Positions 17,694 to 63,067 are shown, numbered from the stretch's first letter. The stretch is DNA of 64,000 nt from an uncultured Planctomycetaceae bacterium (GCA_963759115.1 CAVWXT010000002.1:373557-437556); one strand, 5' to 3'. Notes: generated by a model not told the origin, from the sequence alone. Numbers and translations are program-made.

Positions 17694-19453
<1,760 letters not shown>

Positions 19454-19454
<1 letters not shown>

Positions 19455-19560: not shown

Positions 19561-20282
19561 TCGGTTGCGGCGGCGAGATGCCGCGACAGTTCGTTGGGGT
19601 GGTAGGTACAATGCCACCCCTCGCGGCCATACACAACATCACCTTGGATTTGCACCTTGAAACGCCCCGGGACTCCGGTCCCTGGGCGTTTTTCGCGCAA
19701 TTGAGTGAATCGGGAGTCGAAGCGGGGACGGGGGGGCGAAAGAGGACGCAGCTAATTTCCTTGTCCAACATCTCGCGTCACGCATCGTTGGTCATTCCTG
19801 AAAGAGCCTCTGGAGTCAAGGGCCTTCCGGTGAGTTGTTGGTGGTTGGATTTTGTTTTTGGGCACGTACATTCCCCGACAAAGCCACAAAGGGGCTTTTC
19901 TTGGTAGTTTGAATTGGTTGGGGGGATCGATGGCAGAGTTCAGTTGTCACGGTCATATGCGAGGTTGTTCGCGCCGTTCTTTTCCGTGCGGCGGCACCCC
20001 TACCCATTCCTTCGTGAATCCGTCTGCCGCTAGCGGCAGCCGTTCAGACCCCAACGGGCCTGACACCGAATATGCTTTGCGACCGTCTCGCAGAACACCA
20101 GCCGTCCCAATCAACAAAACGCTCGACAACAAGGCCGAGTCCATTGACCAACTCGGACTGACCAAGTGTCCGCGAGGGCCTCTCCTCGCTGCGAGGAGGG
20201 CCGATGCAACCGCTACTCTCCCTTCTGGCCTCCCTTGTTTTCTGTAACAGGTTCCCCGCCCACCTCTTCCTTCCTATAATTC

Positions 20283-21650
20283 CGCTGCTTGGTGAAGCGG
20301 AGTCGGGCTCTGCGGGGACGCAACCCGACAAGGAATAGCCAAGTCAAGGTGCGCCAAGAGCGTGCGGGGCCTCTGACGAGGGCTTCTCGCCAGGGGCCGT
20401 TTTCTTACCCCTTGGACACCTTGCCATCCCTCCGAAAATCCGCTGCCGCAAAGCACCATCGGGCGATCCTTTCGTGTTCAGCCGGATACGGCCATTCCCT
20501 CGCGTTGCTCTTGCCGGAGCCCGCCGACGGCATACGCCTCGTGGTACTTGACCATGTGCCAGATGATCGTCGCCAGTCGACGCATCACCGCCACGCGACC
20601 GATTTTCGCTCCCCGACGCTTCTTGATCCTCTGATACCAGGCCCTCATGCGCACATCCCGCCGCAGGACGTGCAGCGTGATCTGGGCCAGGATGAAGCGC
20701 ACTGTGGCACTGCCTTGCTTGGTGATCGAGCCCAGCCGGTCGGTCGCCTCGCCGGAATTCCGGCATCCGGGCGTCAGGCCCCAATAGCTGGCCAGACTCT
20801 TCGATCGCGGGAACCGATCAATGTCGCCGATCCGCGAAGCCAAGGCCAGGCTGCCGTAGGCCCCGGCACCCGGAATGCTGGCGATGACCGCCGCCGCCAC
20901 GTTCTCCGCCTGCCGCCGGCGAATCTCCGCCCCCATCTGCTCGATCTGCTCGTCGCACAGCTTCCACTCCCCCAAGAGTTGATCCATCTCCCGCCGGTCG
21001 ATCGGACTGAAGCACACCTGGGTCAGCCATTTCTTCCCCGCGATGGTGTCAATCCCCTTGGTGGGACACTCCTGCTCCAGATTGTGTTTTCGCAACAAAC
21101 GCTTGACGCGGTTGATGATTCGGGTGCGGGACTGCCCCAGACGCTGACGCCGGGCGGTGAGTTGGCGGTCCTGCGCGTCTTGCTCCGTGGGCGGCACCAC
21201 CCGGCGAATGCCTTGCACCTTCGTGCCCGCCAGCAACCGATGACGATTGACCCAGAGGATCTCGCCCAGGGCATTGGCGTCGCGGCGATCGGTCTTCTTC
21301 TTCGACTGCTTCTCGGGCTGAATGAGGATCGTCTCACGGCAGCCATATCCCGGCAACAGTTTCAACAGCCAGTCGTTAAAGCCGCAGACCTCCAAAATGG
21401 CGATGAAGCCGCCTTCCGGTTGGCTCTTCTGTCGCAACTCGGTGAAGAAGGCATGCACCCGTTTCCACTCCGTGCTCACCTGCCGTTTGTCGATCACGTC
21501 ACCGGTCTCCTGGCGAACATTCACGGTCAACTGCTTGCGGTGCTGGTCGATGGAAAGGTATAACATCTCTCGGTCCTCCTGTTTGTACTTTTGGTGGGTT
21601 CACCACGAACCACACCGTGAATAGTACCGGGAGGACCGCTCTTTCATAGA
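20283..21650 (-). mobile_element. IS110-family insertion sequence, copy 1 (boundaries approximate)
   Basis: Transposase gene plus 5' hairpin (GTGGTTCgtggtGAACCAC) upstream of the ATG. The 52-bp terminal block TGGTGAAGCGGAGTCGGGCTCTGCGGGGACGCAACCCGACAAGGAATAGCCA at 20290..20341 is identical to the block at 23321..23372. Confidence 0.7.
20478..21566 (-). CDS. IS110-family transposase (DEDD recombinase)
   Basis: 362 aa: MLYLSIDQHRKQLTVNVRQETGDVI... RDANALGEIL ... GAGAYGSLALASRIGDIDRFP...YWGLTPGCRNSGE, typical IS110/IS1111 N-terminal RuvC-like plus C-terminal domain. Confidence 0.85.
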   Translation of the reverse strand: MLYLSIDQHRKQLTVNVRQETGDVIDKRQVSTEWKRVHAFFTELRQKSQPEGGFIAILEVCGFNDWLLKLLPGYGCRETILIQPEKQSKKKTDRRDANALGEILWVNRHRLLAGTKVQGIRRVVPPTEQDAQDRQLTARRQRLGQSRTRIINRVKRLLRKHNLEQECPTKGIDTIAGKKWLTQVCFSPIDRREMDQLLGEWKLCDEQIEQMGAEIRRRQAENVAAAVIASIPGAGAYGSLALASRIGDIDRFPRSKSLASYWGLTPGCRNSGEATDRLGSITKQGSATVRFILAQITLHVLRRDVRMRAWYQRIKKRRGAKIGRVAVMRRLATIIWHMVKYHEAYAVGGLRQEQREGMAVSG

Positions 21651-21727
21651 ATCAACAAGAGCCTACTGCGGTAACGAAAACGATCCGCACGGCGGATCCC
21701 ACTTTACTTGCTTCCGTGGGGTGACTC

Positions 21728-22165
21728 GTGCATGGGCAATTTATAGAAATTGCGAAGAGCGCATTGTGGCCTTTCGTCGTTCTTTTTCTAAGTTGGCAGT
21801 ACAAGGATAATATTCGGCGCTCCTTCGAGCGCGTTTCTTCCGCGAAGCTACCGGGGGCGGAGTTCGGTTTTGGAGACCTGCCGCCTACGGCGACAAGCGC
21901 GGTGGCAGACAAAACGCCGGTCACACCATCCAATGCGACGGCAACGGTCGCGAATTGCGCGCCGTCGAAGGACGTCCGGCGATGGAGCTACTACTGGCTC
22001 GGCCACGATCTCATGTGGACCGAGGACGGACTTTACCGGGGTGCCTCGAAAGAGTTCATTGTTCACGGCTTGAGTACATCGCTTTCTCATTTGGGGTCTT
22101 CGGCAAAATCTGTGGGTGAAAAATGGGCCTACGGGGGATTCGTCCTGGCAAGGTGGATTTTCTGA
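21728..22165 (+). CDS. hypothetical protein in a low-GC island between the two IS copies
   Basis: 145-aa ORF; local GC is about 50% versus about 68% for the flanks. Confidence 0.3.
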   Translation: MHGQFIEIAKSALWPFVVLFLSWQYKDNIRRSFERVSSAKLPGAEFGFGDLPPTATSAVADKTPVTPSNATATVANCAPSKDVRRWSYYWLGHDLMWTEDGLYRGASKEFIVHGLSTSLSHLGSSAKSVGEKWAYGGFVLARWIF

Positions 22166-22824
22166 GGGATGGCAGGGCAAATAAATGACGGTGGAAACAG
22201 CCGCAAAACCGGGGTTTTCTTGTTGTGTAACGGCCCTCGTCGGGTCTCCCACATCTGCAACGCACGGACCTTTGCCACGGAAAAACGGGGATGGAATCTA
22301 TGAATCAGATCGTTGAGGCTCCCGAAATCACGAAAACCCCTGAAAATCCAGATTCAAACTGAGTTTCACGGCCCAAATCAACCCACAGATTCTGCCGAGG
22401 AGGCCTCATTTGGAGGCTATCGAGGTGCCGGATACCGATTTTAAGTCTAAGCTATCTACACTTCGCGAACGGGTCTCCGCGATGCTCGAAGTCGATCTCA
22501 ACCAAGGAACCAGAGGTCTCTTGCGCACGATATTGCGGAACTCAAGGTGCGCCTCGGCAAGTATATCAATGAAACCAATCGAGAGTGATTTTCCGGCAGC
22601 CGCCGGGACGGCTAAAGGATTGGGAGTGGAAGTGGGAACGGGGGACCAAGAGATGTCAGGAACCGACTCTCGGGAGATATCAGGTGATTCATTCCGGAAA
22701 TGGTTCCTGACACCTATTTCCGCTCCTGACACGTGTTTCCACTCCAGTTATGCCGCGGCCATAATTTCCCGCGGCACACGCCCCCGCGCGAAAAGGGAGT
22801 CAAGATTACGTGGAGCGCTAGGTT

Positions 22825-23229
22825 TTGTCACATAACGACGGGAGGGATCGAATGAGGCTCATGCGGAATCCACATAAGTGCGCTGCTTGCGGTCGCGAAC
22901 TTGATGGCCACCATAGGCACTGCATATCCTGTCGGTCAAAACTGCGGGCCACCGGTAAGTGTGAGTGGTGTGGCATGCTGCTGCCGTCCATCGGCGACGA
23001 CTACCGGCGCACACAGCCACGTGCGCTGAAGCGGAACGCGCGGAGATCGCGCGGCTTGATTTGGGCGACGAGCATTTCTCCGCGCGGGAGCGCGACGCCA
23101 ATGCGCGGGAGAACATCAGGGAGACCAAATTCGGGAGGGATGGCTGATGGGGTGTCCTCGTTCAGCGGAGTCGAGACAGGGACGGGGCTAGTCTCTAACC
23201 AAGCGGAGGAACAACGGGGTCGCCCATAA
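22825..23229 (+). CDS. hypothetical zinc-ribbon protein (low-GC island)
   Basis: CAACGRELDGHHRHCISCRSKLRATGKCEWCG, a 4-Cys-plus ribbon. Confidence 0.3.
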   Translation: MSHNDGRDRMRLMRNPHKCAACGRELDGHHRHCISCRSKLRATGKCEWCGMLLPSIGDDYRRTQPRALKRNARRSRGLIWATSISPRGSATPMRGRTSGRPNSGGMADGVSSFSGVETGTGLVSNQAEEQRGRP

Positions 23230-23314
23230 CCGCCGGCGTGTCAAGGCCCAGGCCAACGGATTTCTTGGGAAACTGCTAATTCGCTTGTCTCGCTGTTATA
23301 ATGTGTGTGCCTGG

Positions 23315-24800
23315 TGAAGCGGAGTCGGGCTCTGCGGGGACGCAACCCGACAAGGAATAGCCAGGTTAGGGCGGGTGAATGACCCGTGATGCCCTGGCGG
23401 TATCCACTGCCAGGGCAGTTTTGTCTCACCGACTCATTCATTTGCTCTACTATGCCTCCGAAAATCCGACCCTGCCAAACACCAGCACACCCGCCGCAAT
23501 TGGCAACGGCTTGTCACTCGTCGTCGCGCACCTAGTAGTCACCCATTCGTGCCGTCCGAGCCGAAGCCCGTCGCATATTGTATTGTTCACCGGTCACAGT
23601 GCCCAATCAGGAGGACAGTGCAGACTTGCGTCTCACGAGAACCCCTTTGCGGGCCAGCCGCGACCGTACTCGTGCGCGATATCGTGTTGCTCTCTACGCC
23701 GCCTGGTGGGCGTGCTCACGCTGCCAACGACGCAGCCGCTTCCAACATATCTCCGCCAGTTTGCGGGCCACCGCCACCCGTGCAATCTTTGCGCCGGATC
23801 GCTTCCGCACCCGCGTGTAAAAGTTCTTCAAGGCCGCGTCCTCGCGGATCGCCTTGATGGCCGCCTCCACGAGAATCCATCGCAACCACGTCGACCCTTG
23901 CCGTGTAATCGAACCGCGGTAGCAGTGTCCGCCCGACTGATGCACACGGCAGGTCAGCCCGGCGTACGCGCCGACCTGTTTTGCCATGCGGAAACGCTCC
24001 ACTTCGCCGATTTCCGCCACGATCAACAACGCCGAGTACAGGCCGATGCCGTGAATCTCGGTCAAGGCTTCCGCTTGCGGAAAAGCCGCCGACATCCGCG
24101 CGATGTGCCGGTCGATGATCGTCGCTTGCCGTCCGAAATGTTTCAATCGCGCCAGTAGTTCGTCGCGGACCAGATTCTCGATCCAGCCGAAGTCTTGCCC
24201 ACGAAACCAAGCTAAGCCGCGGACGCCGAAAGGAACCCGATAAGGGGCTTGCCGATTTTGCCTGGCCAACAAGGCCCGCAAGTGGATTTTCGCCTCGGCC
24301 AACTCGCGGCCCAGACGTGCCCGGCGGCGTGTCAGCTCGCGGAGTTGCTGGTACGGCTCCGGCGGAATGTAGGCCAGCGGAATCTGGTTGATCCGCAACA
24401 GGTTCGCCAACAATTGGGCGTCCAGCTTGTCCGTTTTGGTGCGTTGTTGTACCATAGCCCGCAGACGAAACGGATGGGCCAATAAGATCGTACCGTACGG
24501 TCGGAGCAGGTCGTACAGCCAGCGATACGTTGCGCTGGCCTCGATGACCGCCCGAAAGGATCCCAACGCCTGGACGACGTTCACGATGCTGGCGGTGTCT
24601 TCACAGCGAACGGTGACGGGCTTGATAACTTCGCCCGTGTCGTTCACGGCGGCAATCACCACGGTCTCACGGTGCAAATCGATACCCACGTGCCACATGA
24701 ATAGGTCTCCTTGTTTGGTGGAGGAAAGATGGATTCGTTACTGCTTCCATCCTACTCCACCAGCAAGGGGCCTATCACGCGGCGGTTATAGTATCAGGAG
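23315..24800 (-). mobile_element. IS110-family insertion sequence, copy 2 (divergent transposase, identical 52-bp end block)
   Basis: TATAAT then 9 nt then the conserved 52-bp block at 23321..23372; a longer 3' non-coding region with the cctccgaaaatccg motif shared with copy 1; hairpins upstream of the transposase ATG. Confidence 0.7.
23694..24698 (-). CDS. IS110-family transposase
   Basis: 334 aa: MWHVGIDLHRETVVIAAVNDTGEVI...KTDKLDAQLLANLL...IHGIGLYSALLIVAEIGEVERF... Confidence 0.85.
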   Translation of the reverse strand: MWHVGIDLHRETVVIAAVNDTGEVIKPVTVRCEDTASIVNVVQALGSFRAVIEASATYRWLYDLLRPYGTILLAHPFRLRAMVQQRTKTDKLDAQLLANLLRINQIPLAYIPPEPYQQLRELTRRRARLGRELAEAKIHLRALLARQNRQAPYRVPFGVRGLAWFRGQDFGWIENLVRDELLARLKHFGRQATIIDRHIARMSAAFPQAEALTEIHGIGLYSALLIVAEIGEVERFRMAKQVGAYAGLTCRVHQSGGHCYRGSITRQGSTWLRWILVEAAIKAIREDAALKNFYTRVRKRSGAKIARVAVARKLAEICWKRLRRWQREHAHQAA

Positions 24801-24825: not shown

Positions 24826-24975
24826 GCGGCTCAGCTAACTTAGCTCAGGCACTCGCGTGCCTGACCACTCCCTCACGTGGCGTCCCGGACGGCCGTTCGA
24901 TCCCATTTGGCACAATTTCTGCCCTAGACAACGCCCGGCGACCAGCGCATCATAACGAGCGCGGGACGCTGTAGC
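24826..24975. repeat. about 140-bp repeat (copy A) flanking the ParE-Phd cassette
   Basis: About 88% identical to 25748..25880; contains GGCACTCGCGTGCC and ACGAGCGCGGGACGCTGTA. Confidence 0.6.
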
Positions 24976-24985
24976 CACAGCCACA

Positions 24986-25182: not shown

Positions 25183-25486
25183 GTGAGAGCCGTGCGATTC
25201 CAGGTGACCCTGACGCCCAGCGCGGATGAAGACCTCAAACATTACCGTGCATTCGAGCAACGAGCCATTGTCGACGCGATGAAGATTCACTTGAGGGCCG
25301 ATGCGAACGTCGAGACCAAGCGCCGAAAGAGATTGGCCGGACATCCGGTTGCACCCCTGGGAACTGCGAGTCGGCAACTATCGCGTCTTCTACGAATTGG
25401 AAGCGGAAACTCGCGTCAAGGTCGTTGCCGTTGGACACAAAGAACACAACGACCTGTTCATACGGGGAAAGATGGTGAATTTATGA
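25183..25486 (+). CDS. ParE/RelE-family toxin, frameshifted at about 25350
   Basis: MRAVRFQVTLTPSADEDLKHYRAFEQRAIVDAMKIHL.. in one frame, then WELRVGNYRVFYELEAETRVKVVAVGHKEHNDLF in the next. Confidence 0.5.
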
Positions 25487-25737: not shown

Positions 25738-25747
25738 CAGCCAACGT

Positions 25748-25880
25748 AGATCAGGCACTCCCGTGCCTGACATCTCCCTCACGTGACGTCCCGGACGGTC
25801 GTCCGATCCGCTTTGGCCCAATTTCTGCCCTAGACAACGCCCGCCGCCCGGCGCATCATAACGAGTGCGGGACGCTGTAT
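25748..25880. repeat. about 140-bp repeat (copy B)
   Basis: See 24826..24975. Confidence 0.6.
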
Positions 25881-25960
25881 CGGCAGCTTCTGCGGGGGCC
25901 TGCGGCGACGAACGTGAAATTGGAAATCTATCGCGTTGTTGAACAACGCAAGCGACGGCC

Positions 25961-62281: not shown

Positions 62282-63067
62282 GTGCGCTTGTGAGTGTATC
62301 GAATCAGCAAGGTGCAAGTCCTTGTCGAAATTGGGTTTGAACTTCGTAACCGAAAGTAACTGCGTCCTCGTGAGAGGGGGTGGAGAGCAACTGAAGGTGA
62401 ACGGCTGGTCCGCAGGATGACGAACTCGATTCGGCCGGTTGTCGTGGCGAGCCTGCTAGGAAAAGGCGAAGCCCAAGTGACGCTGTGGTCCTCGCAAGGG
62501 ATGCGGTCGGCAGACCGCGCGGTAAGCTCCGGGGGGAAACCAAACCAAGCCCCAGAGGCGGCAACAGGTGGTTGGAGGCGGAACGGTCGGAAGGTTTGAT
62601 ACATGAAGCAAGGAGACCTGGGCGGGTACAAGGACGAAGTTCATTGTCCCTGATAAGGATACGAAGAATCGACCGCCCAGGAGTCAGAGCGTCCATACGA
62701 GCGAGGAAGCGGGGCAATGCCCGTCGAGCAAAGGGACGCAGGAAAGTGGATGAAACATGACGCACGGCCAAAACCACACCGTACCGCGAGTGTCGGCAAC
62801 GACTAGCCACGACGGACTGCGTCAGGCACACGTAACTTGGCTCAGATTGGCCGCACCGTCGATGTTGCATGTTGGTGGCCTTCCCGTGAAGGTCAGGGCC
62901 TTTCGCTTCTGCCGATCCCGAGAAGGAACCTTGTTTCCTTCCCGCGCTCGGTTCACCAATCCTCTACGAGGTAACACCACTAACCGGAGAGCCGGATGCG
63001 GGAAATCCGCCAGTCCGGTTCGGAGGGAGGGGAGGCCGGGAACTTAACCGGCCTTCCCTACCCTTAT
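62282..63067 (+). ncRNA. ORF-less group II intron (about 786 nt)
   Basis: 5' GUGCG; canonical domain V GAGCCGGAUGCGGGAAAUCCGCCAGUCCGGUUC at 62969..63001 (AGC triad, 9-bp lower helix, CA bulge, GAAA loop); domain VI with a bulged A at 63060, 7 nt before the ..UUAU 3' end. No RT-like ORF; the only ORFs inside are short and Arg-rich. Confidence 0.7.

Follow-up and report, generated by a model that had tools for sequence, protein, structure and literature searches.

Two IS1111-type insertion sequences (ISs) of the IS110 family, here called IS_A and IS_B, lie within a 64,000-nucleotide stretch of DNA (the window) from an uncultured Planctomycetaceae bacterium (GCA_963759115.1, CAVWXT010000002.1:373557-437556), and each carries the same 52-bp block in the non-coding region downstream of its transposase gene. 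We find that this block is the invariant core of a small structured RNA gene that is a passenger in at least five unrelated IS families. The module around it, about 160 nt long, is internal to the elements, structured, under selection and shared across families; it is distinct from the guide RNA and keeps one orientation with respect to the transposase gene. The initial annotation of the window had read the block as a bridge-RNA-like end of the two elements or as a repeat targeted by both. Of that proposal, a functional, RNA-like non-coding element stands, as the block is selected, structured and preceded by a promoter-like box, but it is not the bridge RNA.

The 52-mer (TGGTGAAGCGGAGTCGGGCTCTGCGGGGACGCAACCCGACAAGGAATAGCCA) has two exact copies on the plus strand of the window (Table 1) and none in 100 shuffles. 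The initial annotation was right about the identical pair, though it placed the second copy at 23321-23372, 9 nt away from its true position at 23312-23363. The TATAAT hexamer reported 9 nt 5′ of each copy was confirmed, as was a second shared motif nearby (CCTCCGAAAATCC, at 20429-20441 and 23455-23467). The bases bordering the block differ between the copies in a compensatory way (T...A versus C...G) and lengthen its closing stem. A search with a covariance model of the core (R1) recovered these two copies at about 80 bits each and no third copy in the window. Protein coding through the core was considered and rejected, as the window copies are in different frames, core length ranges from 48 to 51 nt, and the compensatory changes would give non-conservative substitutions in a protein.

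From 5′ to 3′, the module consists of the promoter-like box, a stem (P1), a large internal loop, two further stems (P2 and P3), a long hairpin (P4) and a conserved tail. Metagenome copies provided about 80 variants of the core, and the alignment used here (A3) comprises 68 distinct 66-nt sequences. Across these distinct cores, a fold made up of P1, a 9+9-nt internal loop, P2, a small loop and P3 has 96.2% of cells paired, with double-sided changes in 13 of the 16 pairs. None of 500 shuffles matched any of the observed measures, and slid controls were at most 50% paired. P4 is supported by RNAalifold with compensatory changes; between Planctomycete lineages, and likewise between modules A and B of the window, its sequence is fully replaced and its pairing kept. 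The tail follows the consensus (C/T)AT(G/C)CC(T/C) N1-5 AAAA and is present in 108 of 161 copies.

No variation was seen in loop strands GGUGAAGCGGAG and AAGGAAUAGCC among the metagenome copies, where the search pattern itself fixed them. In a genome scan that left the hairpin free, the Planctomycete cores were identical except for two single substitutions. Judging from its sequence, the internal loop can be written as a kink-turn, with helix P2, a 3-nt bulge (AAG), tandem G.A/A.G and further purine-purine pairs; the likeness to known kink-turn motifs, which have a canonical helix, a 3-nt bulge and tandem G.A/A.G, is one of sequence pattern only. We know of no L7Ae-type partner in these bacteria. 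Three to four GGA motifs also occur in the loop sequence. No consistent covariation was seen for a pseudoknot between the tail and either the core loops or the P3 loop.

The module has no relevant match in Rfam 15, at gathering score or at E values up to 10, in searches with the window, 17 metagenome loci and one isolated module. Blastn against a plasmid collection gave no match to the module, and no account of it turned up in the literature, which was searched by topic and by sequence string. CRISPR-repeat mimicry, a tRNA-like fold and rRNA mimicry were also considered, and none was convincing.

The sequence features favour the plus strand, opposite the transposase gene, as the strand of the module. 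G.U pairs outnumber A.C pairs on this strand by 51 to 15, and it folds better than its complement in 67 of 81 distinct modules (mean difference -6.5 kcal/mol; Wilcoxon p = 5e-10). Every carrier family has an A/T-rich, -10-like hexamer 11-16 nt before GGTG, often with a -35-like TTGACC, TCGACC or TTTACA 17-18 nt upstream of it, and the position of the hexamer would put the start of a transcript at the foot of P1. Modules of the Planctomycete type include a GC hairpin and a T-run within P4.

We looked for further carriers with a metagenome scan that fixed the two loop strands only (GGTGAAGCGGAG N24-36 AAGGAATAGCC). At least 120 metagenome contigs matched, mostly from soil and peat, along with two contigs from a viral collection. 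Neighbouring open reading frames (ORFs) were typed by clustering and Pfam. Among the loci listed, the neighbour was an IS3-family OrfB (rve, HTH_21, rve_3) at 54 loci, an IS110-like transposase at 28, a member of an rve/IS481-like group at 15, ISL3 at 14, IS21 IstA/IstB at 11 and a further rve group at 3; the transposase type was not assignable at 38 loci, most of them on contigs that were too short. No listed copy stood clearly apart from an IS or the remnant of one.

In MFD01231 and three other bins, the core, the box and the downstream 160 nt are carried by an ISL3-family element with a PF01610 transposase. Its terminal repeats (GGCCTCTTCAGCAGAATTCGTGGGTGAA) and 8-bp target duplications, present in 9 of 11 copies, enclose the module, and the module region is 83.5% identical to that of IS_B over 164 nt. 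In the IS3-type carriers, one terminal repeat (TGAGACAACCAGTTAAGAG) precedes the core by about 85 nt and the other follows at about 1.4 kb; because they bracket the core, the module is within the element.

The arrangement of module and transposase gene is the same in six lineages. In all but about three of the scored ORFs, the transposase is on the opposite strand and its 3′ end adjoins the module tail. ISL3 is the exception: the linear element has the module upstream and divergent, and the circularised form has the same arrangement as the others. In IS3-type carriers (L040, L046, L050, L089 and others), the OrfB stop codon TGA is inside the conserved tail (GAAAAC-TCA-T), and the end of the transposase ORF appears to have been shaped by the RNA or DNA element. 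In these carriers, a GC hairpin that has a GNA loop supplies the last 10-12 codons of OrfB (..KEAAARQLSL).

The initial annotation described the two elements of the window as IS110-family elements with divergent transposases, and this holds up; both are of the IS1111 type. Their transposases are clearly different proteins (32% identity; lengths in Table 1), and both belong to the IS110 family, with PF01548 (DEDD_Tnp_IS110) and PF02371 (Transposase_20) above the Pfam cut-offs. Exact-protein look-ups of the two transposases returned no record. What marks the IS1111 group is a pair of subterminal inverted repeats, 7-17 bp in length, together with a long non-coding stretch after the transposase gene (PMC11187229; PMC11208160), and both elements have these, with a downstream region of about 680 nt in IS_A and about 470 nt in IS_B. 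The subterminal repeats of IS_A (TGAAAGAGC/GCTCTTTCA) are at 19799-19807 and 21638-21646, and its boundaries were transferred from multi-copy relatives in MFD01112 and MFD04492. Those of IS_B are ATAACCGCCG at 23226-23235 and CGGCGGTTAT at 24780-24789, and its ends were set from a single copy by analogy with IS_A.

Multi-copy relatives also fix the position of the block. A core-pattern scan of species-representative genomes gave 35 loci, from the Planctomycete bins MFD01231, MFD04492 and MFD01112 (about 8-13 copies each), from Thermoguttaceae bins and, for one locus (L031), from a bin labelled Desulfuromonadales. In two multi-copy lineages, whose transposases are 69-71% identical to transposase A, the IS_A-like repeat unit continues for about 455-490 nt on the left side of the core and for about 1.3 kb on its right, and the flanks diverge beyond these points. 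The units are bounded by TCCCTGAAAGAGCC ... GCTCTTTCATAGAATCA, with subterminal inverted repeats of the IS1111 kind, and are flanked by conserved target motifs: GTGTCC in one genome and a repeat like those of the repetitive extragenic palindromic (REP) class, GGGTAGCACC^GGTTCTTGAACC, in another. In the window, the 52-mer is set back from the element end by about 495 nt in IS_A and by about 90 nt in IS_B. Being internal to both elements, it is neither the end of IS_A, as had been proposed, nor a shared target.

That the block is nonetheless a host repeat, or the end of some other element, into which both ISs inserted seems to us scarcely credible. IS1111-type elements do target repeats, the copies in MFD04492 being in the REP-like repeat, and an ISL3-type end with part of the module is close by in the window. 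The real target motifs are different sequences, however, and in genomes with 8-13 copies the repeat units reach far past the block in both directions, in one of them to beyond the transposase gene. Copies without a transposase are truncated IS remnants or are on short contigs. Insertion of IS110-type elements into an ISL3 end, with CTCTTTCATAGAATCA taken as an ISL3-type terminal repeat, was ruled out by the multi-copy boundaries, the subterminal repeats and the matches between guide and flank. The IS_A-type copies in MFD04492 (L002, L004, L007, L018, L030) are inserted in the REP-like repeat GGGTAGCACC^GGTTCTTGAACCGGTG(C/G)GGCG, with empty copies of the repeat close by, and L018 has several element copies within a few kb.

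The elements appear to encode a separate guide RNA. IS1111-type elements encode a seekRNA in the downstream non-coding region (PMC11187229; PMC11208160), derived from the transposase-sense transcript (PMC11187229), and variable patches that match target and donor are the behaviour expected of a seek or bridge RNA (PMC11187229). When the distal non-coding regions of five IS_A-type elements were aligned, we found that two variable patches interrupt a conserved scaffold. In each of three lineages, the patch that follows GAGTCCA is the left flank in reverse complement (GGTAGCACC with flank GGGTAGCACC; GTGTCCCCG with flanks GGTGTCCC(C/G); GTTGGTCAA with the window flank GTTGGTCA). The other, CAATCA+N5, reproduces the IS end AATCA and, after it, five bases from the start of the right flank (GGTTC, GAATT; in the window ACAAA versus flank ACAAG). 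In IS_A itself, CAATCA+ACAAA at 20108-20118 matches the IS end and right flank, and the left flank (GTTGGTCA) is found in reverse complement, as TTGACCAAC, at 20144-20152. From these matches we infer that the IS_A guide is at these two patches, outside the 52-mer module. RNA-guided, site-specific insertion is thus indicated for the IS_A lineage, and for IS_B there is one 8-nt match, in a candidate patch (CAATCAGGAGG). The left flank of IS_B also has an 8-nt match in the core (AAGCGGAG), no more than would be expected by chance.

These comparisons make it very improbable that the block is part of the bridge or seek RNA of the two elements. It is structured and is in the downstream non-coding region, where the seekRNA of IS1111-type elements sits (PMC11187229; PMC11208160), and in these respects the module is like those guides. 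However, the core is identical in lineages with the targets GGTAGCACC, GTGTCCCC and GTTGGTCA, whose target-matching patches are 137-180 nt away, and the module has no target- or donor-matching loops of its own. It is on opposite sides of the guide patches in the two elements: the order in IS_A is transposase gene, module, guide region, whereas in IS_B the module is beyond the guide region, a difference that would look like the placement of an inserted cassette. Its favoured strand is antisense to the transposase and it has its own promoter-like box. Nor is it confined to elements with DEDD transposases, as it also occurs in ISL3, IS3 and IS21, which have DDE transposases. To our knowledge, no guide RNA has been described in these three families.

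For the role of the module, we lean towards an independent passenger RNA with a cis-linked regulatory function, and hold any specific molecular step with much less confidence. The module would be transcribed from its own promoter toward the 3′ end of the transposase gene and, because the two are convergent, its RNA would be antisense to an untranslated part of the transposase transcript. It may regulate transposase expression, probably negatively, and the invariant internal loop may be the binding site of a conserved partner in the cell, whether protein or ligand.

Several points weigh against this proposal. Pure antisense action would not explain the invariance of the 23 loop nucleotides (fixed, as noted, by the search pattern), and the ISL3 module is antisense to the 3′ end of its transposase gene only in the circularised element. 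Both the transcribed strand and the promoter are inferred from sequence, and the strand statistics come from related sequences, which are not independent samples. A strict consensus promoter scan missed the TATAAT boxes of the window, which are without a good -35. Terminator-like hairpins after the tail are no commoner on the plus strand (18/90) than on the minus strand (21/90).

The last of these points would suit a reading in which the transposase-sense (minus) strand is the functional one. In that case the module would belong to the transposase mRNA as a cis element, in the 3′ untranslated region (UTR) in IS3, IS21 and IS110 and in the 5′ UTR in ISL3, and could act as a signal for processing, stability or termination, for example by parting the mRNA from the seekRNA. 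The constant orientation relative to the transposase gene and the stop codon within the tail of IS3-type carriers are in keeping with this, and Watson-Crick pairs dominate, so both strands can fold. We nevertheless think it unlikely, as the G.U bias and the folding energies favour the plus strand and the conserved -10-like box would have no role on the minus strand.

We give about the same low weight to a selfish or host-directed RNA that rides on ISs as ssr9 does on ISPpu9, with an activity that has nothing to do with transposase control, for example as a protein sponge, aptamer, ribozyme or anti-defence decoy. Loops that stay invariant while the helices co-vary point to a conserved partner or to catalysis, the varying position relative to the guide RNA and the spread across families are consistent with an exchangeable cassette, and ssr9 provides a precedent (PMC12288879). 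The fixed orientation and position beside the transposase 3′ end in six lineages suggest a cis link instead, and a free-standing copy, clearly outside any IS or remnant, is missing from those listed.

A broader possibility, which we find less probable than a cis-linked regulator and put forward tentatively, is that the module represents a new class of structured RNA whose function is its own, as a switch that binds a ligand or a protein, a ribozyme or a priming element. It would have been recruited repeatedly by ISs of the circular copy-out kind (IS3, IS21, ISL3 and IS110/IS1111) and would control or assist a step of their shared pathway, not one transposase. IS3, IS21 and ISL3 transpose via circular copy-out-paste-in intermediates. 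Circular copy-out intermediates of IS110 have been claimed in a preprint (10.1101/2025.10.25.684509).

One specific form of such a step, in which the module primes DNA replication at the copy-out or circle stage as a single-strand initiation site or RNA primer, is in our view highly improbable. Circular intermediates in all carrier families speak for it, G.T pairs are tolerated in folded single-stranded DNA, and a DnaG-type zinc-ribbon ORF occupies the same slot in a related IS1111-like element and is common after IS110-family transposase genes. The case is purely circumstantial, however: the module has no sequence similarity to known priming signals, and the promoter-like box would be unexplained in a DNA signal.

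The closest known things to the module, read as a passenger RNA, are the small RNAs borne by single ISs. RNA-OUT of IS10 and art200 of IS200 are short structured RNAs made from within an IS, on the strand opposite the transposase. The module would share these traits, but RNA-OUT and art200 each cover the translation start in one particular IS and are not known to be conserved from family to family, whereas the module is on the gene's 3′ side, with conservation across families and probably across phyla. Even in ISL3, where it is upstream, it is divergent, which is not the position of an antisense control RNA. Ssr9/Asr9 of ISPpu9 is likewise a small RNA gene with its own promoter, exchangeable and downstream of an IS110-family transposase gene, but Ssr9 is restricted to relatives of ISPpu9, flanked by copies of the IS end box and mobilised by that transposase (PMC12288879). 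The module has no end boxes, occurs in at least five IS families and has an invariant internal loop. Given this loop and its spread across families, it is possibly a new class of RNA.

Insertion sequences are thought to carry only what their movement needs. RNA components are known in few families, as guide RNAs in IS110 and IS200/605 and as antisense RNAs in single elements. The RNA described here, which covariation supports and for which Rfam 15 has no match, is common to elements with DEDD transposases and to several kinds with DDE transposases, and keeps a fixed orientation. Such sharing implies a common requirement or control point that is independent of the transposase, possibly tied to the circular copy-out pathway. 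For those mining IS110-family elements for bridge or seek RNAs, it also means that the most conserved block of the non-coding end need not be the guide; in this case, the guide adjoins a passenger RNA.

Table 1. Features of the two IS1111-type elements and of the DNA between them (positions counted from the first nucleotide of the window).
Feature	Position	Strand	Remarks
IS_A, IS1111-type, ~1860 bp	19795..21654	-	ends TTCCTGAAAGAGCC ... GCTCTTTCATAGAATCA
Guide patches of IS_A, inferred seek/bridge RNA	20108..20152	-	both patches change with target in three lineages
TATAAT, -10-like box, module A	20275..20280	+	A/T-rich hexamer at the same distance in all carrier families
52-mer copy A, RNA-module core in IS_A	20290..20341	+	exact match; covariance-model match 20283-20348, 80.5 bits
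P4 of module A	20346..20422	+	long-range helix AAGGTGCGCCAAGAG / CCCTTGGACACCTT around GC hairpin, then T-run
Conserved 3′ tail, module A	20425..20441	+	CATCCCTCCGAAAATCC
Transposase A, 362 aa	20478..21566	-	PF01548 and PF02371
ISL3-derived miniature element, 311 bp	22095..22405	-	terminal repeats GGTCTTCGGCAAAATCTGTGGGT / ACCCACAGATTCTGCCGAGGAGGCC
IS_B, IS1111-type, ~1575 bp	23222..24796	-	ends +/-3 nt; 10-bp subterminal repeats
TATAAT, -10-like box, module B	23297..23302	+	TGT just before (extended -10-like)
52-mer copy B, RNA-module core in IS_B	23312..23363	+	exact match; covariance-model match 23305-23370, 80.1 bits
P4 of module B	23367..23449	+	TAGGGCGGGTGAATGA / TCATTCATTTGCTCTA around hairpin 23390-23417, then T-run
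Conserved 3′ tail, module B	23451..23467	+	TATGCCTCCGAAAATCC
Candidate guide patch of IS_B	23604..23614	-	CAATCAGGAGG; 8-nt match to right junction (GTATCA, then GGAG), single element
Transposase B, 334 aa	23694..24698	-	PF01548 and PF02371

The DNA between IS_A and IS_B had been suggested to be low-GC cargo mobilised by the pair. Its GC content is indeed lower, but only modestly so (0.52-0.57 versus about 0.60-0.66), and the cargo proposal is not supported: the two elements have different ends and guides, and the intervening DNA contains the unrelated ISL3-derived miniature element, which has its own 8-bp duplication (TCATTTGG, at 22087-22094 and 22406-22413). This element retains the P4-3′/tail part of the module and has lost the core. 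Because it carries the tail, the tail motif occurs a third time in the window, in inverted orientation. A weak zinc-ribbon match aside, there are no recognisable genes in 21655-23221.

One locus (L003) carries a second IS1111-like element, with a transposase 51% identical to transposase A and the same guide scaffold as IS_A. The slot filled by the module in IS_A is taken there, at about 2330-2643 on the minus strand, by a 104-aa ORF with a DnaG-type CHC2 zinc ribbon (PF01807). ORFs of this kind occur directly after IS110-family transposase genes on the same strand and overlap them in L158-L163; about 200 homologues were found, mostly on short contigs. The CHC2 ORF looks like an accessory gene of a subgroup of the IS110 family. 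At about 1820-1850 of L003, two different IS1111-like elements are head to tail with their ends abutting (...AGAGAATCA directly followed by TCCCTGAAAGAGC), an arrangement like that of a circle junction or of one element inserted at the end of the other.

Around the two elements, a GroEL (Cpn60) gene is immediately to the left of IS_A (17751-19454). The genomes with which the window shares its elements also point to a Planctomycete as its probable source. To the right, a direct repeat of about 145 bp (85-88% identity; 24830-24978 and 25738-25885) brackets a ParE-toxin-like fragment (25301-25486), and some 35 nt separate its first copy from the end of IS_B. Close to where the window ends, there is an Rfam match to a group II intron (RF00029, 56.5 bits, 62987-63067).

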